DNA of 64,000 nucleotides from a bacterium (GCA_963674595.2 CAXXFV010000016.1:32001-96000), one strand, 5' to 3'. Positions 1,585 through 37,183 are shown, counted from the first letter of the stretch. The notes: generated from the sequence alone by a model not told the origin. Numbers and translations: made by a program.

Positions 1585-1607
1585 AAAAAAGCCGGAAAAT
1601 CCGGCTT
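1583..1607 (-). terminator. Rho-independent terminator of the cytochrome operon, between convergent genes
   Basis: AAGCCGG-AAAAT-CCGGCTT inverted repeat preceded on + by an A8 tract (U-tract on -). Confidence 0.75.
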
Positions 1608-2307
1608 AAAAAATATTCCAAATATACGATTTTGCAGGGTCTGTATGACATTCGGTCGTACAGGTCGCATTATCGTGGTCCCAACTTAAAGCTGCATTAA
1701 CTTCAGCATTTGGTGATGAATCGATGTGACCTGCATCTGAAAAATATGTTGGTGTTGAATGGCAGGTTTCACAGTTGATTGTGGTAAGGGCTAAATGGAG
1801 CTGATGTGCCCCAACACCGATGGCGGTCGTTAGAATATTGTTGTTCGTGTCTTCCGGGGGTGCTATGCTTGTGCTGCTGCCGTGACATGTATTACAACTT
1901 TCGGGGCCGCCTGATTTATGGCAGGTATAACAGGATGTAATCGTTCCGGCGCCTTTATAATCTGTTCCATGACAACTCTGACAGTTTTCCATGGACCAGT
2001 TGTGTTGGCGAATATAGTTGCCATGAAAATCCTCGGATGTTTGAACAATCCATTCTTCAACATGGGGAAATGTTACATGGCATGTTATACAGGCGGTTTT
2101 TGCTTCACCTCCGGAAAGGTCTGCTCCGTGACAGCTTGTACAGGAAGAGTAACCCACCGTGGCCACTTTTTTCCCATGAAAATTTTCTGAGGTTTGCTGC
2201 ATCCAGCTTTCCGGGTGTGTTTTAGAGGGAAGCGGATTTTTGTCGTCTGAACATGCAAAAAACAATGTTGAAATAAAGATGCTTGTTATGAACAAATATT
2301 TAAACAT
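1606..2307 (-). CDS. Multiheme c-type cytochrome lipoprotein (6 CxxCH + 1 CxxxCH)
   Basis: Probable start ATG 2307 (MFKYLFITSIFISTLFFA-C lipobox). Motifs CTSCH, CITCH, CQSCH, CYTCH, CNTCH, CETCH, CTTECH. Confidence 0.88.
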   Translation of the reverse strand: MFKYLFITSIFISTLFFACSDDKNPLPSKTHPESWMQQTSENFHGKKVATVGYSSCTSCHGADLSGGEAKTACITCHVTFPHVEEWIVQTSEDFHGNYIRQHNWSMENCQSCHGTDYKGAGTITSCYTCHKSGGPESCNTCHGSSTSIAPPEDTNNNILTTAIGVGAHQLHLALTTINCETCHSTPTYFSDAGHIDSSPNAEVNAALSWDHDNATCTTECHTDPAKSYIWNIF

Positions 2308-2344
2308 GGTAAACGCCTTTCGGAGTTGACGCCATTTGTTTTGT

Positions 2345-3229
2345 TTAATTAGCTTGGTGACACTGAACGCAAACAAGATCGCCAAAAGATTCGTTATGAC
2401 AACTCATACATTGATCAAGGTCCTGATGGGCCGCTCTTTTATGACCTCCACCCGTGGTTTTATTGGACCAACCGGCGCTGGCATGTGTGCGAGGCATAAC
2501 CATTTGTTCCTGGTGGCAGGTTACACAAAAGGCCAATTCTTCGTGACATGTATAACAATTTTCCTTGTTTCCTTTTGCCTGAATTGCGTGATTGTTGACA
2601 AAGTTAAGAGGATGAACCTTATGGTCCAGATTGTCACCCGTGTGACAGGTCAGGCATTGATTTTCCGTATGACAAACTTTACATTCGTCTTCTGAAGTTT
2701 GGCTGATAATGCCATGGGCCGTTTGCCAGGCAAGATTATGGTCTTTGGGTTTCAGGTTTTCATCTTTTGAATGGCAAGATAGGCAATAATCCACCTGGTC
2801 CATATCATTATGACAGGTAACACAGGTTGCCATTGGCGGTAAATGTTTATCAAAAATATTATTGCTTTGTTCAATATCCTGGTGACATTGTGAACAGGGG
2901 ATCTCTTTTTCGATATGAGCAGCATGTGGGAAAAAGGCAATATAATCGGTTATTCGCGGATAAACAACGGCATTATCCGGGTTTTTATGACATAAACTGC
3001 ATTCGGCATCCTGATCGTGACAGGCATAGCATGTTTCCATTTCCGGCAACAGATTGTCCGTTGGTTTCAGACTGCTGTCTGCTCCCGCATGACAGTCGGA
3101 ACAGGCCGCTCCTACAGATTCAGCATGAAGTTTGTGCGAAAAGATCAGTTCAACCTGTTGCTGCGCATACATTGTTGAAACACCTGTTAAAAGGAACAGT
3201 AGAAATATAGTTAGAGTTTTTAAATTCAT
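2345..3229 (-). CDS. Periplasmic dodecaheme c-type cytochrome (c3/c7-like repeats)
   Basis: Signal peptide (MYA-QQ), 12 CxxCH motifs, and FSH..H / F.H..H distal-His motifs. Confidence 0.9.
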   Translation of the reverse strand: MNLKTLTIFLLFLLTGVSTMYAQQQVELIFSHKLHAESVGAACSDCHAGADSSLKPTDNLLPEMETCYACHDQDAECSLCHKNPDNAVVYPRITDYIAFFPHAAHIEKEIPCSQCHQDIEQSNNIFDKHLPPMATCVTCHNDMDQVDYCLSCHSKDENLKPKDHNLAWQTAHGIISQTSEDECKVCHTENQCLTCHTGDNLDHKVHPLNFVNNHAIQAKGNKENCYTCHEELAFCVTCHQEQMVMPRTHASAGWSNKTTGGGHKRAAHQDLDQCMSCHNESFGDLVCVQCHQAN

Positions 3230-3246
3230 TTTTTTGTCCCTCTGTA

Positions 3247-4431
3247 TTACCAGCTAAAGGAAATATGATTCAGAAAACGGGAATCATTATCTTTAAAACG
3301 GTTACTCAACCATTGATATTCAATATCTATCATAAAATGTCGATTCGGGTGCCAGGACAGACGTGCTGCATTTGCCAGCAGGTTGTCGTACTCGTAAATT
3401 TCTTCTGTGCGGTATTTTGAATAATCCAGATTTATTGAGGCAATCAGATCATTCATAACTTCCTGAGAATAATCGAGTACAACGCCTGTTTGGTCTCCGG
3501 CATATCCTGATTCATACAGAAAACCGACACTTGCGTTCATGTGACTGAATGTAAAATATAGTTTGTTGGCATTACCGTCATCAAACTGTACATATTTATA
3601 ATCTGCATTAATAAAAAAGTCTGAAATAAATTCCCAATCGGCGCCGGTGTGATATTGGGTATAAGCTTCCGGGGAAAAAATGGAGTAAAATGAATCGGCA
3701 TATATTTGGGGAAATTGGCTTTTGAAACCGGCACGGAGGGCAATTTGGGGATTTACCGTATACCGGGCATAAGCCAACATTCTGTGTAATTGTTCGTTTT
3801 CAATATCATAATGCGCCTGAATGCGAACCTGAGTACGAGGTAAAAGAGAGTTACTCAGATTTATACCTGCCAGGTGCCAGAAAATTTCATTTTTATTTGC
3901 TTTTTGCAGGTAAAAGGGTTGAATTGTGGTAGAATAAATATTTTTTAAATTTATTAAACCACCAATAATTTGACTGTCGTCGGTCTCATAAACTTTAAAA
4001 GAACGCTGGAAATGGGTTTCAACGCCGCCATATATATGAACGGAGAGGTTTTTAAGTATCCTGCTTTTTAAATAGATACCATCAAGACCGCCTAATACGG
4101 TCCCGGGGTGGCGGAATTGTCTTCCGATGGTTAAATCAATTCTGTTTAATAAATTTTTGACCTCAAGGTTTAGAACATAGGCTTTAAAACGCTCTTCACT
4201 GTTCAGCGACTCCTGAGTATCGGTCAGCCCTCGAAGAGAAGAATTGATTATAATTCGATTGTTCCACGTGCGCAAACTCATTCGGGCGTATTGATAAATC
4301 CGAGTGGTTGATTCGATGTCTTTATAACTGTATATCGAATTTTTTACACTGCCGTGAAAAATTAAATTTGTTGCTTTAACGTTGGTAACAACAAAAAGTG
4401 AAACGAGCAATAAAACAAGAATCTTTTTCAT
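3247..4431 (-). CDS. Outer-membrane beta-barrel, putative porin of a porin-cytochrome complex
   Basis: Signal peptide, alternating aromatic/hydrophobic strands, GRQ motif, C-terminal HISFSW; lies directly upstream of two multiheme cytochromes. Confidence 0.75.
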   Translation of the reverse strand: MKKILVLLLVSLFVVTNVKATNLIFHGSVKNSIYSYKDIESTTRIYQYARMSLRTWNNRIIINSSLRGLTDTQESLNSEERFKAYVLNLEVKNLLNRIDLTIGRQFRHPGTVLGGLDGIYLKSRILKNLSVHIYGGVETHFQRSFKVYETDDSQIIGGLINLKNIYSTTIQPFYLQKANKNEIFWHLAGINLSNSLLPRTQVRIQAHYDIENEQLHRMLAYARYTVNPQIALRAGFKSQFPQIYADSFYSIFSPEAYTQYHTGADWEFISDFFINADYKYVQFDDGNANKLYFTFSHMNASVGFLYESGYAGDQTGVVLDYSQEVMNDLIASINLDYSKYRTEEIYEYDNLLANAARLSWHPNRHFMIDIEYQWLSNRFKDNDSRFLNHISFSW

Positions 4432-4470
4432 AATAATTCCCGCGATTTTTTATGTGAACCGCGCTTAAAT

Positions 4471-4496
4471 AGGCAGCCATCTATTGATGACTGCCT
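4471..4496 (-). terminator. Intra-operon hairpin (weak terminator or mRNA stabiliser)
   Basis: Minus strand AGGCAGTCATC-AATA-GATGGCTGCCT: 11-bp stem with one G-U pair, followed only by ATTT. Confidence 0.55.
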
Positions 4497-4509
4497 GAAA
4501 AGAGTTTAA

Positions 4510-5514
4510 TTATTTTATAATAATATCCGAATAATCTGCTGCAGGAGGTGTATATTTTGATTTTGTCAAGCTGTTATAGGCAAATCCGTTAACACCATAA
4601 AGTAAACTTTTTGCGTCATAGCCGAGTATTTGCAGATAAGCAGCTATCTGTGCCGATGTTTGACCTGTATAGCAATAGATAACAATGGTTTTATCCGTTG
4701 GTAAATATTTCAGCATGGCATCTTTTTTTAGAGATGTTTTGGGTTCATAACAAAAAGCACCTTCAATATGTCCGGGATTCAGGTACTCGGCTTTTGGCCA
4801 ATAGTTGATAATAAAATAATTGCCGGGATTTGCGAAAACAGTGGCAGCACTGATATTTCCCCATCCGCTGGTTGCCAGAATATCTTTTACCCGTTCTTTA
4901 ATTATGTCTTCGGCTGACGTTTTGCCTGTTGACAAGGTCGGATAAGTTTGTTCAGTGGTCGGTGTTAAATCTGTAGTTTTTAACTGGGAAGCAAATTCAT
5001 CACCGGCAATTTGGTTTATCCACTTGTCTGTGCCGTTAATGCTGTTATCTGCAACAACAGAGCACATGGCAAATAACAGGTTTTGTGCATCATAACCCAG
5101 CATGTTTAAAACGGCTGTTGCCCAGCTTGCTGTTTGCCCGGTATAACAGATATTCAAAATGGTTTTGGTTTTGGGAATTGTACCATCGTTAATTTTGGTA
5201 ACAAGATCGCCGATTGCCATATTAACAGCACCGATAATATGTCCGGATGTATAATCAGCGGCTGATCTGTAATCAATGATATATGGATCATTGCTAGTGT
5301 CACCATCGGTTAAGAGGGTTTTAACATCTGCAATTGAAATGTTTACAGATTTTCCGCTTGTGGAAGTATAACTGCTAAAATATTGATTGCCGACGGATTC
5401 AACGAGATTAAACTCAACTATTTGTTCTTGTGTTTCAGCCGGGTTGTCATCGTCGCTGCAAGCTGTAATAATAATAAAAAGTCCGAGGAAGAGAATTAGA
5501 AACCGTTTTAACAT
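4510..5514 (-). CDS. Tandem rhodanese-domain (sulfurtransferase) lipoprotein
   Basis: Lipobox IITA-C; IIDYR..DY..GHI.GA and EY...GHIEGA motifs; two active-site loops ICYTGQTA and YCYTGQTS. Confidence 0.88.
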   Translation of the reverse strand: MLKRFLILFLGLFIIITACSDDDNPAETQEQIVEFNLVESVGNQYFSSYTSTSGKSVNISIADVKTLLTDGDTSNDPYIIDYRSAADYTSGHIIGAVNMAIGDLVTKINDGTIPKTKTILNICYTGQTASWATAVLNMLGYDAQNLLFAMCSVVADNSINGTDKWINQIAGDEFASQLKTTDLTPTTEQTYPTLSTGKTSAEDIIKERVKDILATSGWGNISAATVFANPGNYFIINYWPKAEYLNPGHIEGAFCYEPKTSLKKDAMLKYLPTDKTIVIYCYTGQTSAQIAAYLQILGYDAKSLLYGVNGFAYNSLTKSKYTPPAADYSDIIIK

Positions 5515-5554
5515 GTTTGATCTCCTTACAAAAAAGGTTAATATATTTATTCAA

Positions 5555-6847
5555 TTAGTTTTTCGTTAATACGATTTGTTTATTAGCGTCGATTTCATTG
5601 GGATCAAGATCGTCGCTAGTTAAATAATAATCTGAATTATGACATTTGGAACCACATGATCCGGCATCATTGCGTGTGTCTGTTTGCGGCGTCCATCGTT
5701 GAATATTATGTGGCGTAGCATATTTCCATGTTGTTTCGGAAGAATAGTTGGGTAAATCTGCGATACCCCAACTGGCATAGGTGTCGCGTGAAATCGGTAT
5801 ATGACGAACGGTTACGATTTTATAGTTACGATCTGCTGACCGGATCGGATTTCGGGCGATTTTAAAATCCATATAAGAACTTCCGGTAATACCTTGCCCG
5901 CCGGTGTGGCAGGAGTTACAATTTTTGTATGATTGTGAATGGCAAACCTGACAGGAAAGTTCGCCCCAATGCATATTATGATAATTGTTTGCGTTTTCTT
6001 TGTCCTGATGACAGTCTTCACACCGGACCATGTCCTGATCTTCGTATCTGTGTTCCGCCGCTACAGAGCTGCTGTGCATTGCATCTTCTGAATGGCAAAA
6101 TGTGCAGCGTTTAACATTCGGAATCCAATGGACATCAGGGTTAATGCCTGCATTTTCGCCAAAATATTCTGCTCCGACACGGCTGCCGTGACATGCAGTA
6201 CAGTTATTCCGCATATCAGGTTCTTTTTGAAAAGTGTGTCCGTTTAAAAAACCACCATCCACGGAAACCGGACGTGAAACATGACATTGTCCGCAGGAGG
6301 CATGGCACTTTCCACATTCCGCATCAAATTTGTCAACAAGGTCCGGATTTGTTGAAATATCATATCCCAGTCGTTTTTCAATTCTTTTGTAATACCCTTT
6401 GACGTTGTAATGTAAACTGTTTTGGTGTTTGGTCGTAACATCCGCGTGGCAACCTGCACAAAATTGTTCTGACGACGAACTTGGATAGGCGACAAGTCCT
6501 TTATGTGCAACATCTTTAGTTTCTGCTTTTGAATCACCTAAATGACAGGCTGTACAGCCCATTTCCCCATGTGTTGTGCTGAAAAAAGTTTGGTTTACAA
6601 GAACCATTTGCCAGGCCTCTAACTGAGACACGGATCCGCCTCAGCCTTCGCCTGCATCGCCCTCAACATCCGGGAGTGGATCTGCAACCTCTTTTAATAA
6701 AGCAGAATTTGTATGACAACCTATACAACCGTCACTACTTGCCATTTGAACCGTTTTTTGTTCAGCGGGGTATTTTTTTGTACATTGAATAGCCGCCAAG
6801 CAAATCAGCAAAGCAGTGAAAAGATAAGCTAAAAAACGATTTTGCAC
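5555..6847 (-). CDS. Putative selenocysteine-containing multiheme cytochrome c lipoprotein (430 aa; 10 CxxCH + 1 CxxxCH; Sec at codon 69)
   Basis: ORFs 6641-6847 and 5555-6631 share a frame and are separated by one TGA (6643-6641) plus GGC GGA TCC, giving GEG-U-GGS-V. Only the upstream part has a signal/lipobox and RBS (GGAG, GTG start). A SECIS-like hairpin follows the TGA. Confidence 0.8.
6611..6643 (-). promoter_or_regulatory. In-frame UGA plus bacterial SECIS-like stem-loop
   Basis: UGA GGCGGAU CCG U GUCUC AGUUA GAGGC C UGG: 5-bp upper stem, 5-nt loop with G at position 2 followed by U, U/C mismatch, 3-bp lower stem. The loop starts 16 nt after the UGA. Confidence 0.7.
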
Positions 6848-6884
6848 GCTATACTCCAGATTATGGTTGATTTAGATTTGAAGC

Positions 6885-7352
6885 TTAATTTAGTGCCATG
6901 TTTCGGCTTTTAGTGTTTTCCTGAATGTATGTTTTGATTAATTGAATGATTGTTTGTGTAACAATATTGTCCGGTTCTATCTGTAAGGCATTTTCAAAAT
7001 ATATCAGAGATTTTTTAATGTCACAAAACAACCATAGCATTCCCATCATGTTGTGAAAATCCAGAGAATTTTTATTTTCATTGGGTCTTTTTTCTGCATT
7101 ATATACGAGCTCCGCACAAGGGCAGTCATCGTCAACAGCATTGGTGTTGATGATAAAAGAAATATCTTCTTTAATAAGAGGAACAAACAGTTCCAGAGCT
7201 TGGTCGATTTGAAATGTTTGTGTATAACTGACAACAAGCTTGCGACGAACTTGTTTATTTTTGGGATCATGTTGCAGTATTTCTTCAAGCTCTTTAACGG
7301 CGCCGGTATAGTTACGCGATAAAAAGTATTGGTTTCCAAGCATTTCAGACAT
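6885..7352 (-). CDS. Tetratricopeptide repeat protein with DDDCPC motif
   Basis: TPR-like helices (LGNQYF...GAVKELEEILQHDPKN; MGMLW...FENALQIEPDN); no signal peptide. Confidence 0.75.
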   Translation of the reverse strand: MSEMLGNQYFLSRNYTGAVKELEEILQHDPKNKQVRRKLVVSYTQTFQIDQALELFVPLIKEDISFIINTNAVDDDCPCAELVYNAEKRPNENKNSLDFHNMMGMLWLFCDIKKSLIYFENALQIEPDNIVTQTIIQLIKTYIQENTKSRNMALN

Positions 7353-7379
7353 GTATACTTCCTAATTTTGTTAAGAGTA

Positions 7380-7395
7380 TACAAATACCCTGCCA
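7380..7395 (-). promoter_or_regulatory. sigma54 (-24/-12) promoter, GT variant at -12
   Basis: TGGCAGGGTATTTGTA = GG-N10-GT, about 28 nt upstream of the TPR start and just downstream of a sigma54 activator gene. Confidence 0.6.
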
Positions 7396-7432
7396 TGCTG
7401 TAAGTTCAATAAATTCAATGGTGTTGTGAATG

Positions 7433-7513
7433 GTATTTTGAAACATTTCGTTTCAAAATATTTATAACTGCTTGTTAAATATTAATATATGTATTTTGAA
7501 ACAATATGTTTCC
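7433..7513. promoter_or_regulatory. Tandem palindromic upstream activator sites (TGAAAC-N5-GTTTCA)
   Basis: TATTTTGAAAC-ATTTC-GTTTCAAAATA (7434-7460) and TGAAACAATATGTTTCC (7497-7513). GTATTTTGAAACA is repeated at 7433 and 7491. Confidence 0.55.
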
Positions 7514-7526
7514 TGAAACATCCTCG

Positions 7527-8846
7527 TTAAACAAGACCGTGTGTTTTCATACGACGCCAAAGCGTTGTTCTGCCGATTCCCAGTTCAGCGGCTGCTTTGC
7601 CTCGGTTCCAGTGGTGCTTTTCCAGCGTTTTGGCAATTTCATTATCCTGCTTTTTGATGTTCCTGGGTGTTACAGGCTTGATATTATCAAAACTAATACG
7701 AATATGAGCGGGGAGTTTTGTTTTTTCTATAACATCGTTATTTTTTGTTCTGGCAAAGGCATATTCGATGGTATTTTCCAATTCGCGAACATTTCCCGGC
7801 CAGTTGTAACGTAATAATATATCCATTGAATCGTCATCAATTTCATGAATATTCTTGTTATAAAGAAGTGAAAATTTATGGATAAAATGTTTGACCAAAT
7901 AGGGTATATCATCCAACCGTTCTCGCAATGGAGGAACATGAATGGGTATTACATTAAGTCGATAATAAAGGTCTTGGCGGAATTGACCGGATTCAAGCGC
8001 TTGTTCCAGGTTTTTATTGGTTGCGGCTATCACCCGAACATCGACATTGCGCGTCGTCGATTCTCCGATGCGCTCAAATGTACCTTCCTGCAAAATTCGA
8101 AGTAACTGCAACTGGGTTTGCTGCGGCATTTCTGCAACTTCATCCAGAAAAATTGTTCCTTTGTCTGCCAGCTCAAAGCGACCGACCCTGTCTTTAATTG
8201 ACCCTGTAAACGCTCCTTTTACATGGCCGAAAAGTTCACTGGCGAGTAACTGGTCCGGGAAAATAGAACAGTTTACTTTGATATACTTTTCATTTTTGCG
8301 ATAGGATGTCGTCTGAATAGCATTGGCAATCATCTCTTTTCCTGTCCCGGATTCACCCTGAATCAGAACAGCCGCGTCTGCATCGGCAATTTCATCAATC
8401 AATTCAAAAATTTCTATCATGGATTTATGATAACCGACAATACCATGATATTGTGTCTCTTTAATTAATTTCTTTTTGATGACCTCTACTTCCGAAATAT
8501 CCCGGAAAGAGATGATTCCGCCATAGGGTTCGTTATCACTATTATACAGAACCGACGAATTCATCTTGACATATATTATTTCGCCTTTTTCATTAACAAG
8601 CTTTGATTCGATGTCATATTTAGTTTGTCCCGATTCCAATACATGGGCTATTGGGCATTTGCCGGAACAAAGTCCGGTTTTACAAACATATTTACATATT
8701 TTACCAATAACGTTTTCGCGGTTTATCCCCAGTATGTCTTCTGCAGCACGGTTGATAAATGTAATTTTAAAATTTTTATCAACTGTAAAAACGCCTTCTC
8801 CGATTGAATCCAAAATGTCTCTTGTTTGTGGTTGTCGAATTGGCAA
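7527..8846 (-). CDS. PAS-domain sigma54-dependent transcriptional activator (PAS-AAA+-Fis HTH)
   Basis: N-terminal PAS (FINRAAEDILG), Walker A GESGTGKE, GAFTGS, FLDEV, WPGNVRELEN and HTH AAAELGIGRTTLWRR. Confidence 0.93.
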   Translation of the reverse strand: MPIRQPQTRDILDSIGEGVFTVDKNFKITFINRAAEDILGINRENVIGKICKYVCKTGLCSGKCPIAHVLESGQTKYDIESKLVNEKGEIIYVKMNSSVLYNSDNEPYGGIISFRDISEVEVIKKKLIKETQYHGIVGYHKSMIEIFELIDEIADADAAVLIQGESGTGKEMIANAIQTTSYRKNEKYIKVNCSIFPDQLLASELFGHVKGAFTGSIKDRVGRFELADKGTIFLDEVAEMPQQTQLQLLRILQEGTFERIGESTTRNVDVRVIAATNKNLEQALESGQFRQDLYYRLNVIPIHVPPLRERLDDIPYLVKHFIHKFSLLYNKNIHEIDDDSMDILLRYNWPGNVRELENTIEYAFARTKNNDVIEKTKLPAHIRISFDNIKPVTPRNIKKQDNEIAKTLEKHHWNRGKAAAELGIGRTTLWRRMKTHGLV

Positions 8847-9086: not shown

Positions 9087-11363
9087 ATGGAGGACGTTTT
9101 GAAGTCAGTATGGATTATTCTGTTTATATTCTTTGTATTGTGTTTTAATGTAACAGCAAACACATTTATAACCGGCCAGGTATTTGATGCAGAAACAAAG
9201 AAACCTCTTTCGTCGGTAAATATTTTTTTTGAGAATTCTGTTTTGGGTTCATCATCTGATAACAATGGCCGCTATCAAATTCGTGTTGACAGTTTTGAAC
9301 AGGGGTGTCTGGTTTTTACCTGTGTTGGATATGAACAGGAAAAGAGAAAACTGGATGCAAATGAATCAGGCGAACAAGAATTACATATTTATTTAAAGCC
9401 GACTGTCATTCAATTAAATAAAAATATTGTCGTGACGGCTAACCGGTCCCGAAATGATGTTTTTAATGTGGTTGCTTCTGTTTCAGTGATGGAGAAGGGA
9501 CAGCTTGATCGTCGGTTGCCTCGTTCCACCCCCGAAGGATTGATTGAAACGTCCGGTGTTTGGATGCAAAAAACAAATCATGGCGGCGGATCCCCGTTTA
9601 TCCGAGGTTTGGTGGGCAACCAGGTATTAATACTGGTTGATGGTGTTCGGCTTAACAATGCTACATTTCGATATGGCCCCAATCAGTACCTGAGCACGAT
9701 TGATCCGTTCACCATATCACGGGTTGAAGCACTCCGGGGTTCCGGTTCTGTTTTATATGGCACCGATGCGCTGGGGGGTGTGATAAATCTGTTGACCAAA
9801 GAGCCACAGTTTATAAATGCAGGCTATAATATTTCCGGGGACGTTTATTCCCGTTTTATGAGTCATGGAATGGAAAAGACAGGCCGCTCGGAAATTCATT
9901 TTCAATCACCGGCGGTTGCTGTTATCGGAGGTTTTTCGCGCAAGAATTTTGGTGATATTTATGCCGGCGGAGGTATTGGCAAGGAAGCACCCTCTGGGTA
10001 TGAGGAATCCGATTGGGATGTTAAAACACGGATTAAACTTTTTTCAAAAGGCGAGTTGACGGTTGCCCATCAAAACGTATATCAGGATGATGTGCCGAGA
10101 TATGATAAAGTTTTTGAACAGGATTATAAAACCTATTCTTTTGATCCGCAAATTCGACGATTGTCTTACTTGAAGTATATAACCGATTTGTCTTCAAAAT
10201 GGATTCAGCAAGTAAGTTTGAACCTTTCCAGACATGAGTCCATTGAAGAACGAAAAAAACAAAAAAGAGAAGATCCGTTGCTGGTACAGGAAGAAGATAA
10301 AGTAAAAACATTTGGGATTAATCTGGATGTTTTATCAAGACCTTATACATTTTGGAAAGTAAATTCCGGAGTTGATTATTATAAAGATTATATTCATAGT
10401 TGGCGTAAGGATATTGATACGGATACGGGCCAGACGGTTTTGAAAAGAGGACTTTATCCTGATGATTCAAAAGCAGAAAATCTGGCAGTGTTTGTAACCA
10501 ATGATTTTGCTTTGGAAAAATTTAACATAACCTGTGGTGCCCGTTTTAATCATACAAAGTTAAATTTTTATAATGAAGGATTTGGATATCTTGAAAATAA
10601 TTCCGAATCTTTCGTTACCACACTTGGACTTGGTTATTTTATGAACCAAACCCTTCTTTTTGGTTCTGTTTCTCAGGGTTTCCGCGCCCCTAATATCAAT
10701 GATGTCAGCAGCTTGGGTGAATTTGATTATGGAACTGAAGTACCTAGTCCTGACCTTTCTCCTGAAAAATCCGTTAATATGGAACTGGGTGTTAAAAGCC
10801 GTTTTGATAGCTGGTCTTTTGCCGGTTCTGTCTATCGTAATGATCTGACGAATTTGATTGACCGGGTTAAAAGTACATATCTGGGGCAATCAATTTATGA
10901 GGGTTTAAATGTTTATAAAAAGCAAAATATTGACAAAGCGTATATTTACGGATATGAGATGGATATGGAGGTTGCTCTGCTAAAAAATGTTGTATTTCAG
11001 CAGAACTTGATTTATACCTATGGTGAAACGAGTGACTCGAAAGAGCCGTTACGCCGTATCCCGCCATTGTATGGCAAATCGAAAATTAAATGGCAGGTGT
11101 CCTCAAAGTTGTGGTATGAAACCGATTTGCAGTATGCCGGAAAACAGGACCGGTTGTCTTCCGGTGATATTGATGATCACCGTATTCCTGAAGGCGGAAC
11201 ACCGGGTTGGCAGATTTTAAATATGTATATGGGCTATTCGTTTCAAAATCTGGATGTTTCCGTTGGCGCTCAGAATTTATTCAACAAGGCCTATCGAATT
11301 CACGGTTCTGGAGTAGAGGGCTATGGCCGAAGCTTTTGGATAGGACTGCATTTCAAGTCTTGA
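9087..11363 (+). CDS. TonB-dependent receptor
   Basis: N-terminal CarboxypepD_reg-like domain, plug motifs (IRG, LVDGVRLN, VEALRGSGSVLYG.DALGGVIN), FRAPN and NLFNK..GR ends. The start may be TTG 9099 after GGAGG. Confidence 0.92.
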   Translation: MEDVLKSVWIILFIFFVLCFNVTANTFITGQVFDAETKKPLSSVNIFFENSVLGSSSDNNGRYQIRVDSFEQGCLVFTCVGYEQEKRKLDANESGEQELHIYLKPTVIQLNKNIVVTANRSRNDVFNVVASVSVMEKGQLDRRLPRSTPEGLIETSGVWMQKTNHGGGSPFIRGLVGNQVLILVDGVRLNNATFRYGPNQYLSTIDPFTISRVEALRGSGSVLYGTDALGGVINLLTKEPQFINAGYNISGDVYSRFMSHGMEKTGRSEIHFQSPAVAVIGGFSRKNFGDIYAGGGIGKEAPSGYEESDWDVKTRIKLFSKGELTVAHQNVYQDDVPRYDKVFEQDYKTYSFDPQIRRLSYLKYITDLSSKWIQQVSLNLSRHESIEERKKQKREDPLLVQEEDKVKTFGINLDVLSRPYTFWKVNSGVDYYKDYIHSWRKDIDTDTGQTVLKRGLYPDDSKAENLAVFVTNDFALEKFNITCGARFNHTKLNFYNEGFGYLENNSESFVTTLGLGYFMNQTLLFGSVSQGFRAPNINDVSSLGEFDYGTEVPSPDLSPEKSVNMELGVKSRFDSWSFAGSVYRNDLTNLIDRVKSTYLGQSIYEGLNVYKKQNIDKAYIYGYEMDMEVALLKNVVFQQNLIYTYGETSDSKEPLRRIPPLYGKSKIKWQVSSKLWYETDLQYAGKQDRLSSGDIDDHRIPEGGTPGWQILNMYMGYSFQNLDVSVGAQNLFNKAYRIHGSGVEGYGRSFWIGLHFKS

Positions 11364-19790: not shown

Positions 19791-22433
19791 CTATTTAATA
19801 AATATCATCTTGCGTGTAAAAGTGTTACCCGGTGAATCCATGCGATAGAGATATGTTCCGGCGCTGACAGTTAGTCCATAATTGTCCCGGCCGTCCCACA
19901 CAAGTTTGTGATAACCGGTACCAAATTTTCCGCTTGCCAGTGTTCTGACATGTACACCACGAATATCATAAATATTAATGGTTACTTCTGCGGCTGTTGG
20001 TACGGCAAACTCTATAACCGTTGTTGGGTTAAATGGATTCGGATAGTTTTGCGACAATGCAAAAGCTTTTGGAACTGCTCCGTTCTGAGAATCTACAGAT
20101 GTTACTGCAATGGATGTTTCATCTGAAAGCTCACTTTGGTTACCGGAAAAGTCAAAAGCCGAAATCTTGTAGTAATAGGTCTGGCTTTGATCTGTTTCTG
20201 CGTCAAAATAGGATGTTCCTGTGAGTGTAGCAATTCTGTTTTCATCGGTGGCGGCAAAGCCCGGGGCCGTTCCGCGATAGACTGCAAAATAATTAAAGTC
20301 TTCATCAACAGGATCATTCCATGAAAGTTTAACATCTGTTCCACCGACAAGTTCAGCAACAAGGCCGTCCGGCGCCATTGGTACAAGGTTATCAACAGAA
20401 TAACCGGCTCCCGGTTGTGATTCATGTCTGGTACCGCCTTGAGTTACAGCAACAACCATGAAATTTGTTAAGGCAGTTCCGCTTGCTGTAGAGTCGTAAA
20501 CTGTCGGTACGACCAAAGCATAACGGTTGCTGCCGTCTGCTGTTGTTTCTCCGACGTCTGTCCAGTCAGCCTCACCATCCTGGCGTTTTACTTTATAAAC
20601 AGCTACCGGGTCAATGGCAATACCGTCATCTACAAATTTATCCCAAATAATGCGAACTTTTTTACCCTGATCATTTGGTACATCTTCAATGGCAACAATT
20701 TCACCATCAATAGCATTGTTTTTCAGCGCTTGAATGCTTGTTTTGAGAAGAGCTACAGTAAATGCGGGATTATGAATGCCATAACTATGATCATAATAAA
20801 CCATTCGATGGTTAAAACCTGCTTTTAATTCTGTTTTGGTCCAGGTTTCATCTACATCGGCATGGGGGTCTGCATCCGGTAACAATCCACTGAGGATGTC
20901 CATCAAACCATGAACTTCTTCCTGAAGACCTTCCGCTACACCATCTCCATCATGGTCGGCATTGCCGTTGGCATAGTATTTCTTTTCACTAAAAGAATCA
21001 CCAACGTCACCGTGGCAGTCTTTACAGGAAGCCACATTATCAACGCTATCCAGGCTGACCATTGAAAAGGAATGCATTCCGGCAGATGTTAAATTACCAT
21101 CAGCATCATGTTCACCATGAGAACCATCTTCATACATATGACAGGTCGCACAGGCATTTCCTGTTGCTTCCAGGTGAGGCGATGAGGGTAGTGTTTTTCC
21201 AAATGTTGCAACATTTGTTGCCAGCAGCATATCAGCTTGCGGTGCATAATGAGGACCGTAATGGCCGGATGGTGCATTGGTGTACGTTGCCGCATTTTGC
21301 CGGCTTTGGTGACAGTTCATACATATAGCTCCGGTTCCGGCGCCGCTGACTTGCTGGTTGTTGGATAAAGTTGCGGTCATTGTTCGAAGTTGAAAAGTAT
21401 TTTCTGCCGAGTGCGGATCGTGGCAAACAGCACATGTGATGTTAATATGAGATTGAGTTGTAATTGTTTCACCTTCAACAAATTGAACAAACTGAGCGCC
21501 GTTATGACAACCATTGCAGGTGGTACGCGTACCGCCTGGATAGGTTGGAATGCGTGAATGTGGGGATTCTTTCCATTGTGCCGGATATACATGGTAATGA
21601 TTATCATCATGACAAACAGCACAGGCTTCTTCAGCCAAAGTTGCGACCATTTTATTGTCCGCTGTGCGGCCATAGTGGGCGCTACCGGGACCGTGACATG
21701 ATTCACACTGAATTCGTGCCAGTTTCATTGAATTTGGATAGGTTGCTACAAGATTGTCCCATGTTTCGGCAGCGATGGTAGCCGGGAATACCCATGCAGA
21801 ATCTACACCGGCTATTCGTTGTGTACGGTCATCAAATCCCTGGTTGTCGGCAAATTCATCGTACCCGGTTGAATGACATTTAACACAGGATAACGAATAA
21901 TGGCCGCCGGGAGTTGTTAGTTGAGTTTCCATTATGGAATAGTGTCCGGTTTGTTCCCATTCTGCGGCTTTTTCCTGGTGACACATGCCACAAGCCCCAT
22001 CTTCAATGCCAACATAGGTGCCGGCATTAATTGTTAAAGAATCTGATAATTCGCCATCTGTAAATACGATGACATACGTTCCAACAAGGTCCGGGGCAAA
22101 TACAGCGACCTGGGTTGAATCATCCAGGTTTACTATGGGATCAATAGCCGACTCTGACCAGGATGGTGCTGATGCGATAGTCCATGTTGGTGCTATCATG
22201 GCACCAGCAGTAATCTGTGCTTTAAAATACATTTGTGTTTCTATACCTACATTTAAAAGCGCATTGTAAGGACGATCAAAAACACCAACATATTCCGGAT
22301 TGCCCACTGTATCCGCCAAAGATTCTGCAGTTGATATACCTACAGGCCCAAAAGATAAAGTTTGTCCAAAAGATATTGTACTTGCTAATAATAATGCAAA
22401 AATAACCAATATGACCTTTTTCATGGTATCCAT
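19791..22433 (-). CDS. Nonaheme c-type cytochrome with Ig/Fn3-like domains and T9SS/FlgD-like C-terminal sorting domain
   Basis: Signal peptide; 9 CxxCH (CGMCH, CVKCH, CESCH, CAVCH, CNGCH, CAVCH, CMNCH, CATCH, CKDCH); c552-like DHSYGIHN helix; Fn3 (LSWN...YYYKISAFD..GNQS); QNYPNPFNP...KMIFIK tail. Confidence 0.9.
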   Translation of the reverse strand: MDTMKKVILVIFALLLASTISFGQTLSFGPVGISTAESLADTVGNPEYVGVFDRPYNALLNVGIETQMYFKAQITAGAMIAPTWTIASAPSWSESAIDPIVNLDDSTQVAVFAPDLVGTYVIVFTDGELSDSLTINAGTYVGIEDGACGMCHQEKAAEWEQTGHYSIMETQLTTPGGHYSLSCVKCHSTGYDEFADNQGFDDRTQRIAGVDSAWVFPATIAAETWDNLVATYPNSMKLARIQCESCHGPGSAHYGRTADNKMVATLAEEACAVCHDDNHYHVYPAQWKESPHSRIPTYPGGTRTTCNGCHNGAQFVQFVEGETITTQSHINITCAVCHDPHSAENTFQLRTMTATLSNNQQVSGAGTGAICMNCHQSRQNAATYTNAPSGHYGPHYAPQADMLLATNVATFGKTLPSSPHLEATGNACATCHMYEDGSHGEHDADGNLTSAGMHSFSMVSLDSVDNVASCKDCHGDVGDSFSEKKYYANGNADHDGDGVAEGLQEEVHGLMDILSGLLPDADPHADVDETWTKTELKAGFNHRMVYYDHSYGIHNPAFTVALLKTSIQALKNNAIDGEIVAIEDVPNDQGKKVRIIWDKFVDDGIAIDPVAVYKVKRQDGEADWTDVGETTADGSNRYALVVPTVYDSTASGTALTNFMVVAVTQGGTRHESQPGAGYSVDNLVPMAPDGLVAELVGGTDVKLSWNDPVDEDFNYFAVYRGTAPGFAATDENRIATLTGTSYFDAETDQSQTYYYKISAFDFSGNQSELSDETSIAVTSVDSQNGAVPKAFALSQNYPNPFNPTTVIEFAVPTAAEVTINIYDIRGVHVRTLASGKFGTGYHKLVWDGRDNYGLTVSAGTYLYRMDSPGNTFTRKMIFIK

Positions 22434-22515
22434 ACCTCCTCGGTTAAATGATACGTTGATTAGGTAAAAATATGTGAAATCATCACCTCCTTGTCATTCT
22501 TTCAGTTTATTTAAA

Positions 22516-22568
22516 AACCTATATTGTCTGATATAGGTTATTATATAATATTTGTAGGGGGAAGTCAA
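22516..22568 (-). promoter_or_regulatory. sigma70 promoter with overlapping palindromic operator
   Basis: Minus strand TTGACT (22568-22563)-17 nt-TATAAT (22545-22540), immediately followed by the palindrome AACCTATAT-N6-ATATAGGTT (22516-22539). Confidence 0.75.
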
Positions 22569-22724
22569 GAAAATTCTAAAATATTTTTTTCATAAAGCCT
22601 TATTTTTCTTAAATTTTATTTCGTTTTTGCGAACTATTAGTAAAAATTTTATCTTTATTAAAAGAGTATTTTGAATTAAAAACATTTTTTTTAAATTAAA
22701 CTAGTTTTTACCGGAGATTTTATA

Positions 22725-23180
22725 ATGTCTGAATTGAATGTAGATGATATTCTCAAGCCAATGTATTCCATTGGTTATGCTGCAAAAAAACTGGGCGTAG
22801 CTGTTCCAACATTACGTATGTATGAAAATGCGGGACTGATCATACCATTTCGTACGGAAACAAATCGAAGACTTTATTCTTATCATGATATTAAACATTT
22901 GCAAGTTATTATTGAACTTGTTCGAAATCATGGGTTAAATTTAGAAGGTATTAAAAGACTCGCAGCTTTAATTCCCTGCTGGCATATTCAAAAATGTTCA
23001 ATTGAAGATTGTGCAAGTTGCCAGGCTTATTCCAATTGCTGCGAACCCTGTTGGCAAAGTAAAAACAATTCTTGTAAACACCCAAATACTGATTGTCGTA
23101 ACTGCCAGGTTTATATTTCCAGTCAGGAAAATTTAAAAAACCCGAAACTCATCCTGCAAAAATTCTTTCACAAAAAATAG
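22725..23180 (+). CDS. MerR-family (HspR-like) regulator with Cys-rich two-CW C-terminal domain
   Basis: YSIG.AAK.LGV...TLRMYE..GLI.P.R...NRRLYS HTH; the C-terminus has 10 Cys including two CW motifs. Confidence 0.88.
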   Translation: MSELNVDDILKPMYSIGYAAKKLGVAVPTLRMYENAGLIIPFRTETNRRLYSYHDIKHLQVIIELVRNHGLNLEGIKRLAALIPCWHIQKCSIEDCASCQAYSNCCEPCWQSKNNSCKHPNTDCRNCQVYISSQENLKNPKLILQKFFHKK

Positions 23181-23362
23181 ACATCTAATATTAATAACTG
23201 TTTTTGCGTTAGTTTAAATTTTTTTTCAAATGTTCGCTTTTAAATTATTTATCTAGTTTGTATTATTAATTATGTGAACCTTTGGGAGAATTTTAATTGC
23301 TTCACCATTCTCCGGATAAAAATCTGGCAAGAGTATAATTGATTATTTAGAGGAGAACTTTT

Positions 23363-24871
23363 ATGAAGCTCAGATTACCGCATTCTTTTTATAATCCAAT
23401 TTCTTACGCAGGAGCGGCCATTGCCGTTATTGCCATATTCATGTTTGTGTTTTTATATGTTCTTTCGTCCCTCACGGCATTCGACAAAGCCTATGTGGGA
23501 ATTGTTATCTTTATTGCTATTCCTGCATTTATCATTCTCGGTCTTTTACTCATTCCATTTGGAATGATCTTGAAAATACGCAAACAAAAAAAACAAGGCG
23601 AAGCAGAGGGTGATGACTTTCCGATTTTAAACTTGAATCTAAAAAGACATCGTAATGCTACATTTATTTTTACAATCGGAACTACGCTATTTTTGTTTTT
23701 ATCTGCTTTGGGAAGTTATGAAGCCTATCATTATACGGAATCCGTCAAGTTTTGCGGGACATTATGCCACGACTTGATGATTCCCGAATATACAGCCTAC
23801 CAGGAATCACCCCATGCCCGTGTAACCTGTGCGGAATGTCATGTGGGAGAGGGGGCCAATTGGTATGTGAAATCCAAATTAAGCGGATTGTATCAGGTAT
23901 ATGCGGCCCTTGCCAATGTCTATCCACGACCCATTCCGACGCCGGTTAAGAATTTACGTCCGGCCCGAGAAACTTGTGAAGAATGCCACTGGCCGCAAAA
24001 GGTATATGGTAAACAACAACGCAAAGAAATTTATTATCTACCTGATGAAGAAAACACCCGCTGGGAAATTGATATGCTGATGAATACTGGCGGCGGCAAT
24101 CCGGCGTTGGGACAAAGTTCAGGTATTCACTGGCATATTAATCAGAATATTAAAATAGAATATTTTACTAATGACGAGAAAAGGTCATCAATTAATCGTG
24201 TTGTTATGACGGATTTGGCAAGCGGTGAAAAAAAAGTCTATGATAATGAAATGGAACCTTTTGATGAGTCCGGTGAAACAGTTTATGAGAATAGAACAAT
24301 GGATTGTATTGATTGCCATAATCGTCCCAGTCATGTTTATCGTGACCCTAATAGATTTGTAAATGTTGCTATTGCTTCGGGTAATATCAGCTCCGAAATT
24401 CCGATGATAAAGCAGGCGGCTATTGAAGCTTGTATGGAAGACTATGAATCAACTCCGGATGCTTTTACGGGAATAGAAAAGCATGTTCTTGCGTTTTATG
24501 AAGACAATTATCCAGATATTGTCAATGAAAAAAAGGAATTGCTGGAAAAATCAATTGCCGGTATTCAGGATGCCTATTCAAAAAATATATTTCCGGAAAT
24601 GAATGTAAAATGGGAATTTTATCCGGACCATATCGGACACATGACCAGCATTGGTTGTTTTCGCTGTCATGATGGTATGCACAGCACGCAGGATGGTCAG
24701 ATTATTTCCCATGGATGTAATGACTGTCATCTCATTTCCAGTCAGGGTCAAGCCGGGCAGATTGTGAGCGCCAGTGCAGACCAGTCTCTTGAATTTAAGC
24801 ATCCCATCGATATTGGCGAAGAATGGAAGTCGACAGGTTGTTATGAATGTCATGTCGTGCCGCCGCTATAG
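23363..24871 (+). CDS. NapC/NirT-family inner-membrane multiheme cytochrome, ImcH-like (7 hemes)
   Basis: Three N-terminal TM helices; TES..FCGTLCH..M.PEY..Y..SPH..V.CAECH NapC/NirT signature; further CEECH, CIDCH, CFRCH, CNDCH, CYECH. Confidence 0.85.
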   Translation: MKLRLPHSFYNPISYAGAAIAVIAIFMFVFLYVLSSLTAFDKAYVGIVIFIAIPAFIILGLLLIPFGMILKIRKQKKQGEAEGDDFPILNLNLKRHRNATFIFTIGTTLFLFLSALGSYEAYHYTESVKFCGTLCHDLMIPEYTAYQESPHARVTCAECHVGEGANWYVKSKLSGLYQVYAALANVYPRPIPTPVKNLRPARETCEECHWPQKVYGKQQRKEIYYLPDEENTRWEIDMLMNTGGGNPALGQSSGIHWHINQNIKIEYFTNDEKRSSINRVVMTDLASGEKKVYDNEMEPFDESGETVYENRTMDCIDCHNRPSHVYRDPNRFVNVAIASGNISSEIPMIKQAAIEACMEDYESTPDAFTGIEKHVLAFYEDNYPDIVNEKKELLEKSIAGIQDAYSKNIFPEMNVKWEFYPDHIGHMTSIGCFRCHDGMHSTQDGQIISHGCNDCHLISSQGQAGQIVSASADQSLEFKHPIDIGEEWKSTGCYECHVVPPL

Positions 24872-24968
24872 GATTTGTTTACAAGAATCGTTTTCTGTTG
24901 CGCCTTTTTTAGAGATTGATTATATTTTTTGACAATGTTTATCGAATGCATTTATTCAGAACGGGATT

Positions 24969-26915: not shown

Positions 26916-27340
26916 TGATGGAAATTTTTGTTTTAATTCTTGTTTTAGGGGTGGTGTTATATGTTATAGCACCTTTATATTCTAAAAAAGAGGTCGTTGT
27001 TGCTCAATCGGCCACAAATAAAAATGTATATACTGATTTTTTACATCAAAAATCCTTTGTTCTGCAAACCATAAACGACCTGGAGTTTGATTATCAAACC
27101 GGTAAATTAACGGAACAGGACCGTGATGAACTGGTCAAAGAACAACAGGAAACATTGGCAACAATAGAAACAAAAATGAAAAAGGTTTCCGGAATTGATT
27201 TGACCAATTTGGAACAACAATTGGAAAAAGAAATTTCAGATGTTAAAGAAAAGCTAAAACCAAAACTGCAATGTTCCTCATGTGGTTTTATTTGTCATCC
27301 CGGAGATAAATTTTGCGCTAACTGTGGTATGAAACTTTAG
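26915..27340 (+). CDS. Membrane-anchored CcmI-N-like protein with C-terminal zinc ribbon
   Basis: Start overlaps the ccmF stop (TAATG); N-terminal TM, DLEFDYQTGKL motif, CSSCG...FCANCG. Confidence 0.7.
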   Translation: MMEIFVLILVLGVVLYVIAPLYSKKEVVVAQSATNKNVYTDFLHQKSFVLQTINDLEFDYQTGKLTEQDRDELVKEQQETLATIETKMKKVSGIDLTNLEQQLEKEISDVKEKLKPKLQCSSCGFICHPGDKFCANCGMKL

Positions 27341-27348
27341 AACGTACT

Positions 27349-28506: not shown

Positions 28507-29207
28507 TTATAGTCAGGGATATTGAAAAGTCTTTTGGGCCGGCACGGGCACTTGGAGGCGTTTCTTTTCATATTAAAGAGGGAGAATTTACCGGGCTTGT
28601 CGGCATAAACGGTGCCGGTAAAACGACGCTTGTACGCATTCTCGCAGGCTTGTCAAAAGCGACAAAAGGTACTGTTTCCATTGCCGGGTATGATGTTCGT
28701 AAAAATGCCAACGACATTCGTCGTCAAATCGGAGTTATGAGCCATAATATTTTTCTCTATGGTGATCTTTCTGCCGAGGAAAATTTGTATTTTTATGCAA
28801 AAATGTATAATGTAAAAAACGAGCAGGAAAAAATTTCCCTTCTTTTGGAACAGGTTGGTTTGTATAAGAGGCGACATGATCTGGTCCGTAATTTTTCCCG
28901 TGGTATGCAGCAGCGCCTTTCTCTGGCTCGGGCAACTTTGCATGGTCCAAAAATATTACTTTTGGATGAACCTTTTGCCGGGCTGGATGTTAATGCTGAA
29001 AAATTATTAAAGGACTTGCTCGATTCTTTTCGCCAACAGAATTTAACGATATTTATGACAACGCATGATATTGATTTTGCCTGTTCGCAAATAGAACGGT
29101 TGCTGGCTTTAAAAAATGGAATACTGGCATTGGATAGCGCAACATCCGGAATGGAAAAAGAACGCATTTTGACATTATTAACCGATGAGGGGGCGGGCCG
29201 CTCATGA
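28503..29207 (+). CDS. ccmA: Heme exporter ATP-binding subunit CcmA
   Basis: GINGAGKT, FSRGMQQR and LLLDEP motifs; adjacent to ccmB and ccmC. Confidence 0.88.
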   Translation: MIIVRDIEKSFGPARALGGVSFHIKEGEFTGLVGINGAGKTTLVRILAGLSKATKGTVSIAGYDVRKNANDIRRQIGVMSHNIFLYGDLSAEENLYFYAKMYNVKNEQEKISLLLEQVGLYKRRHDLVRNFSRGMQQRLSLARATLHGPKILLLDEPFAGLDVNAEKLLKDLLDSFRQQNLTIFMTTHDIDFACSQIERLLALKNGILALDSATSGMEKERILTLLTDEGAGRS

Positions 29208-29881: not shown

Positions 29882-29896
29882 GGGAGCACATGGTTT

Positions 29897-37100: not shown

Positions 37101-37183
37101 AGAGAGTCTGTTTTGCTGAAATCTCTAGTGTTGCAATTTATAAGATCGATGATTATATTTTAAAAATTTTAAATGTGGAAAGC

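Follow-up and report, generated by a model that had tools for sequence, protein, structure and literature searches.

What can a bacterium do with a multiheme cytochrome c whose gene is interrupted by an in-frame UGA codon and lies beside genes for a rhodanese and for the parts of an outer-membrane electron conduit? This question is raised by a row of seven genes (1606-8846, all on the minus strand) in a stretch of 64,000 nucleotides (nt) of bacterial DNA (GCA_963674595.2, CAXXFV010000016.1:32001-96000), hereafter called the window, to which coordinates refer unless a contig or locus handle precedes them. Judging from its sequence and from its relatives, the row is a real, conserved operon, in which an 11-heme cytochrome containing selenocysteine (Sec) and a rhodanese are joined to an outer-membrane conduit. 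By analogy with characterised enzymes, this operon probably serves uncultured sediment bacteria in a molybdenum-free respiration of sulfur compounds. Its features are, from the activator to the terminator:

7527-8846, minus strand: activator with PAS, sigma54-AAA+ and Fis-type HTH domains (Pfam)
7439-7520, minus strand: candidate activator-binding palindromes (read from the sequence)
7381-7395, minus strand: sigma54 -24/-12 promoter TGGCAG-N5-TTGT (pattern and position in orthologues)
6885-7352, minus strand: small cytoplasmic TPR protein, gene 1 of the operon (Pfam)
5555-6847, minus strand: 11-heme Sec cytochrome c, probably a lipoprotein (TGA read-through, heme motifs)
6641-6643, minus strand: UGA codon read as Sec, residue 69 (conserved in-frame TGA)
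6615-6629, minus strand: hairpin resembling a selenocysteine insertion sequence (SECIS) (covariation)
4510-5514, minus strand: tandem-rhodanese lipoprotein (Pfam and lipobox)
3247-4431, minus strand: 22-strand outer-membrane beta-barrel (AlphaFold2)
2345-3229, minus strand: periplasmic 12-heme cytochrome (12 CXXCH motifs)
1606-2307, minus strand: lipoprotein cytochrome with six CXXCH motifs and one CX3CH (motif scan, lipobox)
1589-1607, minus strand: intrinsic terminator closing the operon (hairpin and T run)

A preliminary description of this locus had spoken of six close-set, co-oriented genes behind a -24/-12 promoter, with a PAS-sigma54 activator upstream and one terminator at the end of the row. 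All six genes are in place on the minus strand and only 17-78 nt separate them; the activator carries the corresponding Pfam domains, the promoter element keeps its position in orthologues, and a single strong terminator, with a G+C-rich 8-bp stem (five G-C pairs) and a T run after it, closes the row. The description of the products was likewise accurate. A multiheme Sec lipoprotein (conserved in-frame TGA, covarying hairpin, 11 heme motifs and a lipobox), a double rhodanese lipoprotein (two Pfam Rhodanese stretches and a lipobox), a beta-barrel (22 strands in the AlphaFold2 model) and cytochromes with 12 and about seven hemes are all encoded, and the approximately 30 hemes that had been announced correspond to 30 motifs (11 + 12 + 7).

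The UGA codon at residue 69 of the cytochrome very probably encodes selenocysteine, as its sequence context indicates. Under genetic code table 11 the gene is split into 6641-6847 and 5555-6631; when the TGA is read through, a single protein of 430 amino acids (aa) results, with a signal peptide and a lipobox Cys (Cys22), and the downstream open reading frame alone would be without a signal peptide. In the phylum survey, a homologue was found in 44/167 genomes, and 39 of the 48 matches contain one in-frame TGA. An alignment of 100 loci was also built from 20 phylum loci and from the best 80 of at least 584 loci from species-level genomes of all phyla (at least five genomes are counted twice). 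TGA occupies the residue-69 column in 93 of these loci and is one or two columns off in two more, the others having Cys (2/100) or Leu, Arg or Gly (3/100), and the motif G-E-G-U-G-G-x-V-x-x-L-E is nearly fixed across the family. Cys is also present at the Sec column of P0002, a full-length database homologue. The protein database clustered at 90% contains 2325 homologues and, among the matches listed, 117/120 cover at most 83% of the query, as expected if they had been called from a start after the TGA.

The SECIS-like hairpin begins 11 nt past the UGA and consists of a 5-bp stem and a 5-nt loop containing GU. It is paired in 98.7% of 155 cells (31 sequences), and two of its five pairs show compensatory changes (C-G to G-C and C-G to U-A). 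Its covariation score was reached by none of 500 shuffles, and slid controls pair in only 22.6-63.9%. The minimal fdhF SECIS has the same 11-nt spacing. An alternative stem containing the UGA itself, suggested by a single-sequence fold (z -0.51), showed no covariation and was dropped. Additionally, the genome encodes the Sec machinery, with tRNA-Sec (65.9 bits), selA (574 bits), selB (354 bits) and selD (389 bits) all over their family cut-offs; selD (C4:13190-14113) has one in-frame TGA itself, and SelD is probably a selenoprotein here.

That the TGA is instead a true stop, with 6641-6847 and 5555-6631 being two separate genes or a broken one, is extremely unlikely. Gene callers do annotate the split (P0001, for instance, has 358 aa) and produce the truncated homologues just mentioned, but a true stop is hard to reconcile with residues conserved in frame on both sides of the codon in 95/100 loci, with the Cys at the same column in two loci, with the covarying hairpin and the full Sec machinery, or with a downstream frame devoid of a signal peptide. 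The pseudogene or two-gene reading was therefore rejected on the conservation of the TGA and the covariation of the hairpin.

The read-through protein contains ten CXXCH motifs and one CX3CH, and Sec69 sits, in its G-E-G-U-G-G loop, between the heme-1 and heme-2 motifs. Across a set of 95 distinct read-through sequences, conservation is at least 97% for each of the 11 heme motifs and at least 99% for exactly ten His residues outside them. Consequently, one heme is left without a conserved His partner. As the cytochrome has no Cys outside the heme motifs and the lipobox, and no Lys or Met is conserved in at least 90% of the 95 sequences, Sec69 is the only other conserved candidate for a ligand or nucleophile. 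Lys52 had been considered as a conserved Lys ligand like that of octaheme tetrathionate reductase (OTR), and was discarded because the Lys, Met, Tyr and Arg residues kept in at least 90% of the same sequences do not include it. In OTR, as reported by Mowat et al. in 2004, the unusual Lys ligand of heme 2 and a nearby Cys come from the same inter-motif segment. The five-coordinate heme of OTR is placed in its N-terminal module (PMC9250108).

On profile and model evidence, the core of the Sec cytochrome is a distant homologue of OTR, and the protein represents a larger new branch of the OTR superfamily, not an OTR. OTR from Shewanella oneidensis (PDB 1SP3) is its best fold match and its only significant profile relative. 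VIA-align, run against 48,161 chains, placed 1sp3 first (Z 8.0, rmsd 4.2 over 249 residues, with model residues 90-430 against residues 1-429 of the chain), the next row having a Z of 4.5, and 1sp3 also came first when the family profile was compared with the PDB (E 3.8e-05). Moreover, hhalign relates the family profile to the genome's own OTR (probability 97.25%, E 2.8e-11, 163 columns) and aligns the CTACH heme-2 motifs of both proteins. The single Sec cytochrome sequence found nothing significant among PDB sequences by phmmer. OTR has eight hemes, whereas the cytochrome described here has 11 heme motifs and is set apart by an extra N-terminal heme, the Sec loop, a lipoprotein signal and a rhodanese partner. 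The genome's own, true TIGR04315 OTR is encoded elsewhere (C23:1685-2932, 579.9 bits) and has no in-frame stop; another multiheme gene directly follows it, both lying within C23:1685-4432.

The Sec cytochrome belongs neither to the MccSep (ExtKL) family nor to TIGR04315. No NCBIfam model matches the read-through protein at E up to 0.01. When the whole genome was searched at E up to 10 with NF040886, the MccSep/ExtKL model (cut-off 250 bits), 11 matches were obtained, none of them at C16:37558-38847, where the Sec cytochrome lies; at the same E, TIGR04315 (cut-off 375 bits) also left it unmatched. A weak, sub-threshold relative of NF040886 is encoded at C27:86328-87299 (64.6 bits vs 250), with no in-frame stop.

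The partner of the cytochrome, a lipobox-bearing protein with two stretches matching Pfam Rhodanese (4.8e-21), has its two catalytic Cys residues, C123 and C281, in CYTGQT loops, and both are invariant in 18/18 sequences. The residues following the lipid Cys are acidic in most orthologues. In Bacteroidota, such acidic signals direct lipoproteins to the cell surface. The rhodanese gene lies at most 3 kb from the Sec cytochrome in 78/93 Sec-type loci, and seven of the loci without a nearby rhodanese have short flanks. In the three loci that have neither Sec nor Cys, the rhodanese slot is occupied by another gene (two loci) or gives a partial rhodanese match (one locus). The loss of the rhodanese together with that of Sec/Cys is no more than a hint and does not amount to a statistical test, as the loci are few and mutually related. 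Where residue 69 is Leu or Arg (L047 6081-7838 and L077 6242-7990), a protein of approximately 585 aa fills the slot; it has an N-terminal CXXCH, and its tail resembles, by eye, a type-IX secretion sorting domain. Additionally, the rhodanese gene looks damaged in the two close relatives of the Cys type (L010/L068 and L011/L067), with only the last 84 or so codons left in one and the gene split over two frames in the other. This damage may be decay tied to the change from Sec to Cys or an assembly error.

The neighbourhood recurs both in the phylum loci and in other phyla, as a synteny comparison suggested in the preliminary description showed, and the gene order kept in relatives places the arrangement far beyond chance. 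In the 20 phylum loci, the Sec cytochrome is accompanied by the rhodanese in 17 (at least 70% covered), by the small lipoprotein cytochrome in 13, by the TPR protein in 13, by the barrel in 12 and by the 12-heme cytochrome in 12; the activator lies upstream of the operon in 11, and the full seven-gene order is found in six. Among the best 80 loci from all phyla, the counts are 62/80 for the rhodanese, 22/80 for the 12-heme cytochrome, 21/80 for the barrel, 14/80 for the small lipoprotein cytochrome, 13/80 for the activator and 13/80 for the TPR protein. Since the rhodanese is the commonest companion in both surveys, the universal core consists of the Sec cytochrome and the rhodanese, and the conduit and the activator/TPR pair are mainly additions of KSB1/Calditrichota. 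The titles of the 80 best matches include Calditrichota/KSB1, Thermodesulfobacteriota, Chloroflexota, Planctomycetota and Gemmatimonadota, together with Marinimicrobia, Eisenbacteria, Krumholzibacteriota and others.

The closest known counterpart is the extHIJKLMNOPQS cluster of Geobacter sulfurreducens. This cluster encodes MccSep (ExtKL, GSU2937-2936; PDB 9WT8-9WTC), a Sec-containing multiheme polysulfide reductase described as required for respiration of elemental sulfur (S0) (PMC13510729; PMC5877670). Both gene sets place a Sec multiheme cytochrome c beside a lipoprotein resembling rhodaneses (in Geobacter, ExtH), a porin-like protein of the outer membrane (ExtI), a 12-heme cytochrome (ExtM) and a lipoprotein cytochrome (ExtS). 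However, MccSep is a soluble periplasmic tetramer with five hemes (PMC13510729), whereas the cytochrome considered here has 11 heme motifs and a lipobox; Sec325 of MccSep lies in a D-G-U-P loop that is part of a C-terminal Ig-like domain, whereas Sec69 lies in G-E-G-U-G-G; and Cys239 of MccSep ligates heme 2 near Sec325, whereas no spare Cys is available in our cytochrome. The Geobacter cluster also differs in having Rieske/cytochrome b genes, which are missing from this operon, and in its regulation, as Fur reportedly regulates ExtH and ExtKL (PMC5877670) while sigma54 is expected to act here. No families named after ExtH or ExtI are among the NCBIfam matches of the operon, and no direct comparison with the ExtH/ExtI sequences was made. 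The earlier view of the operon as analogous to ext and built from different parts holds, NF040886 having no match to the Sec cytochrome: Ext/MccSep of Geobacter is the known kind, and this operon is a variant with a Sec cytochrome of a different family.

Other known systems share parts of the arrangement. In MtrCAB of Shewanella (PDB 6R2Q) and in Pcc/Ext of Geobacter, a heme-dense periplasmic cytochrome, a barrel and a lipoprotein cytochrome are encoded side by side, as they are here; those of the Mtr/Pcc type serve a metal reductase, whereas the partners of this conduit are a Sec enzyme and a rhodanese. No molybdoenzyme was found in the operon by the Pfam scan. In Wolinella succinogenes, the periplasmic rhodanese-type protein Sud hands polysulfide sulfur to the molybdopterin enzyme Psr. 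The acceptor there is a molybdoenzyme, whereas here it would be a Sec/heme protein.

Taken together, these data somewhat favour an operon that encodes a sigma54-controlled, molybdenum-free envelope reductase of sulfane sulfur carried by the rhodanese (polysulfide or S0, possibly also thiosulfate or tetrathionate). This functional reading derives from the analogy with MccSep (PMC13510729) and from the distant homology to OTR. Polysulfide/S0 would be the most likely substrate, followed by thiosulfate or tetrathionate; in the preliminary description, the rhodanese would deliver polysulfide/S0, or a selenium species, to a Sec/heme site. One heme would be catalytic, being either five-coordinate or Sec-facing. 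The selenolate would attack the sulfane sulfur of a persulfide or polysulfide that the rhodanese delivers on its pair of catalytic Cys residues, and the resulting Se-S intermediate would be resolved to sulfide with two electrons from the heme chain. The 12-heme cytochrome could be housed in the 22-strand barrel and, together with the small lipoprotein cytochrome, would take electrons across the outer membrane; such a conduit would give reach to insoluble S0 or to sulfur bound at the surface. The cytoplasmic TPR protein, with its CPC motif, probably acts together with the activator.

A more specific version of this proposal is tentative and, in our view, stands less chance of being right than of being wrong. 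According to it, the G-E-G-U-G-G family would be a second, independently evolved Sec-plus-heme enzyme cleaving S-S bonds, with the OTR fold, as opposed to MccSep, as its origin. As the only Cys-like residue outside the heme motifs, Sec69 would act as nucleophile at the heme that has no conserved distal His, or as an axial ligand of that heme, and the substrate would be protein-held sulfur, present as a persulfide on the partner rhodanese. The KSB1/Calditrichota enzyme would be connected to a 22-strand porin-cytochrome conduit of its own and to a Cys-PAS/sigma54 sulfur sensor, leading to molybdenum-free respiration of solid sulfur.

The predicted parts of the conduit fit a porin-cytochrome wire, with a plugless 22-strand barrel beside a heme-dense cytochrome. 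The barrel is an exported protein of 394 aa with short loops and no plug domain in its AlphaFold2 model (mean predicted local distance difference test, pLDDT, 84.8). The barrel of MtrB has 26 strands, compared with the 22 found here. Its best Foldseek matches are FimD/PapC ushers (E down to 2.8e-10, TMq 0.60); a TonB-dependent receptor is also among its PDB look-alikes, and the ESM Atlas contains only unnamed look-alike clusters. No Pfam family was assigned to it at E up to 0.01, no MtrB_PioB- or DmsE-family model exceeded its cut-off, and the only NCBIfam match was a weak one to TDE1717 (E 0.0096). Its family comprises 120 clusters, whose named sources are KSB1, Calditrichaeota or "bacterium", and that of the 12-heme cytochrome comprises 115. 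The latter protein (294 aa) has a signal of the signal-peptidase-I type and a Cytochrome_C7 match (3.9e-14), and carries one heme per 24 residues. In 12/20 phylum loci its gene adjoins that of the barrel, with the lipoprotein cytochrome gene next to them. The small lipoprotein cytochrome has a likely start at MFKY and the lipobox FFAC, and its orthologues combine 4-8 CXXCH motifs with a lipobox.

Everything expected of a sigma54-dependent operon is present, namely an enhancer-binding protein, RpoN (455.7 bits for the rpoN of this genome), a -24/-12 element and upstream repeats. The activator consists of PAS_9 (7.2e-17), Sigma54_activat (E 7.7e-68) and HTH_8 (8.9e-14), with no receiver domain in the Pfam scan, and three Cys residues of its PAS domain (C51, C60 and C64, as C-x8-C-x3-C-P) are invariant in 12/12 orthologues. 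TGGCAG-N5-TTGT lies 29 nt ahead of the TPR start. Twelve orthologous activator-TPR intergenic regions were compared, the window included, the extracted stretches ending at or just before the TPR start; a regular expression finds the element in eight of them, 29-54 nt from the end of the stretch, an element with a TTTGA -12 box was spotted by eye in three further ones, and one has none. Upstream of the operon there are two candidate palindromes, TGTTTCAGGAAACA at 7507-7520 and TGAAAC-N5-GTTTCA at 7439-7455. The pattern TGAAAC-N1-6-GTTTCA occurs once in the window, compared with 0.09 expected occurrences, and GTTTCA/TGAAAC repeats are visible by eye in all 12 intergenic regions. The sole other window match to TGGCA-N6-TTGY, at 37877-37891, follows an ABC-ATPase gene (37175-37864) and precedes a ClpB-like gene (38191).

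The TPR protein (155 aa; TPR_19 1.7e-08, TPR_2 4.2e-08) has no signal peptide, and both Cys residues of its DDCPC motif are kept in 10/13 orthologues; its WLYCD motif is likewise conserved in 10/13. As this protein and the activator mostly co-occur across loci, they may form a sensor/co-regulator pair, and the TPR protein may putatively be a co-sensor or an anti-activator.

A number of observations weigh against the proposed sulfur-reducing envelope system. Regarding the enzyme, the AlphaFold2 model is poor around Sec, with a pLDDT below 50 at residues 62-70, and Foldseek gave no match at E 0.001 or better in the PDB (to April 2026), with 1sp3 as the best one at E 0.23. OTR also reduces nitrite and hydroxylamine (PMC13510729), so that kinship with it leaves the substrate unfixed. 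Regarding the partnership, no rhodanese is nearby in 8/93 Sec-type loci, although the flanks of these eight measure at least 1.5 kb. Regarding the conduit, no match of the barrel to the MtrB_PioB model was obtained in the Pfam scan, 8/20 phylum loci show no barrel and 8/20 no 12-heme gene, and in 3/20 neither of them accompanies the set of Sec cytochrome, rhodanese and small lipoprotein cytochrome, which makes the conduit an add-on. The predicted complex of the barrel and the 12-heme cytochrome scored 0.56 (0.56, 0.60 and 0.56 in the three runs; best control 0.00), which is weak support: the mark was reached by 116/157 solved complexes and 2/215 mismatched pairs, and scores of at most 0.60 include only 18/157 solved complexes and both passing mismatches. 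Agreement between the three runs covers at least 78% of contacts, and the pLDDT of the partners is at least 70. The operon itself contains no inner-membrane quinol dehydrogenase. Finally, the -24/-12 pattern by itself is no more frequent than chance predicts, with two matches in the window and 1.65 expected, and the support for the promoter therefore comes from position and conservation and not from the frequency of the pattern.

Among the other explanations, a thiosulfate or tetrathionate reductase, also free of molybdenum, is unlikely. In such a system, the rhodanese would strip sulfane sulfur from thiosulfate (or bind sulfur derived from tetrathionate), and the OTR-like Sec cytochrome would reduce the persulfide. 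The distant homology of the core to OTR speaks for this, as does the definition of rhodaneses as thiosulfate sulfurtransferases (Pfam PF00581). A multiheme cytochrome of Dethiobacter alkaliphilus, encoded with rhodanese-domain proteins and once misnamed "thiosulfate sulfurtransferase", is upregulated on thiosulfate (PMC10376724), which would count in the same direction if this protein (DealDRAFT_1917) belonged to the 11-heme Sec family. JGI applies the sulfurtransferase misname to 4/120 homologues among the matches listed, the cytochrome fragments P0062, P0065, P0071 and P0079 being called "thiosulfate/3-mercaptopyruvate sulfurtransferase". By contrast, MccSep, the one characterised Sec cytochrome, is inactive on thiosulfate and tetrathionate (PMC13510729), and a true TIGR04315 OTR is already encoded at another place in the genome. 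Another alternative is that the barrel and its two cytochromes form a conduit for the reduction of metal oxides (Fe/Mn) and have only the operon in common with the Sec cytochrome/rhodanese pair. The classical porin-cytochrome triad of the layout is in keeping with that, and so is the finding that, in most phyla, the pair lacks the conduit (21/80 of the best loci have the barrel and 22/80 the 12-heme gene); but the fixed order, the 17-78 nt spacing, the one promoter and terminator, and a linkage maintained across the families of the phylum make it a very doubtful explanation.

Selenite or tellurite could also be reduced or detoxified at the envelope, with selenium as the cargo that rhodaneses are able to carry, and this we hold to be improbable. 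MccSep reduces selenite too (PMC13510729), and loss of ExtI lowers selenite/tellurite reduction according to PMC13510729 and PMC5877670; but MccSep prefers polysulfide, with a sevenfold higher Vmax/K0.5 (PMC13510729). Approximately 30 hemes and an outer-membrane conduit suit respiration better than detoxification. Selenium oxyanions are, besides, scarce in sediments compared with sulfur. Equally improbable is an oxidative direction, in which sulfide, S0 or thiosulfate would be oxidised at the Sec/heme site and the electrons would leave through the conduit to an external acceptor or enter the quinone pool. Porin-cytochrome conduits can run either way. TsdA-like enzymes with His/Cys-ligated heme also work in both directions (PMC13510729), but the two closest characterised enzymes, MccSep and OTR, are reductases, and the Pfam and NCBIfam scans revealed no Sox or Dsr-type partner in the operon. 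Reduction of rhodanese-carried sulfane sulfur is the reading that we prefer.

Molybdenum-free respiration of elemental sulfur received its first answer in 2026, only for Geobacter and through MccSep, and the operon described here is a pointer to another selenium-heme enzyme, one of far wider distribution. If the more specific version of the proposal is true, the sulfur cycle would contain a major route that has been overlooked, since the species-level genomes with the family number at least 584 and come from many phyla. Since databases truncate the Sec cytochrome at the UGA and label it as hypothetical or as a "sulfurtransferase", the sulfur-respiring capacity of sediment metagenomes is probably under-counted. 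No published description of the 11-heme Sec family was found in a search that left subscription journals and supplements outside its scope, and MccSep is the only Sec multiheme cytochrome with an adjacent rhodanese gene described in the literature examined (PMC13510729). In the passages searched, a 2026 review of selenoproteomes names only ExtKL, a GSU2204-family protein and TIGR04315 as cytochrome selenoproteins; TIGR04315 is listed among selenoprotein families in a table of PMC13188914. The kinship with OTR, the count of SECIS covariation, the bookkeeping of hemes and His residues and the regulatory pair are additions of the present analysis, and the KSB1/Calditrichota form provides a testable wiring diagram, from sensor and promoter to enzyme, carrier and outer-membrane conduit.

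Next to the operon there is a cytochrome island (19791-30583). It comprises an 880-aa cytochrome with nine CXXCH motifs and a FlgD_ig tail (19791-22433, minus strand), a MerR regulator, a membrane-anchored protein of the NapC/NirT type with six CXXCH motifs (23363-24871) and the maturation genes for CcmF, a CcmA-like protein, CcmB and CcmC (24969-30583). The NapC/NirT-type gene, 14.5 kb from the operon, encodes a candidate electron donor to the operon from the quinol side. On the other flank of the activator, its divergent neighbour is a TonB-dependent receptor of the heme/hemoglobin type (9087-11363), which matches TIGR01785 with 224.9 bits, below the cut-off of 316.85.

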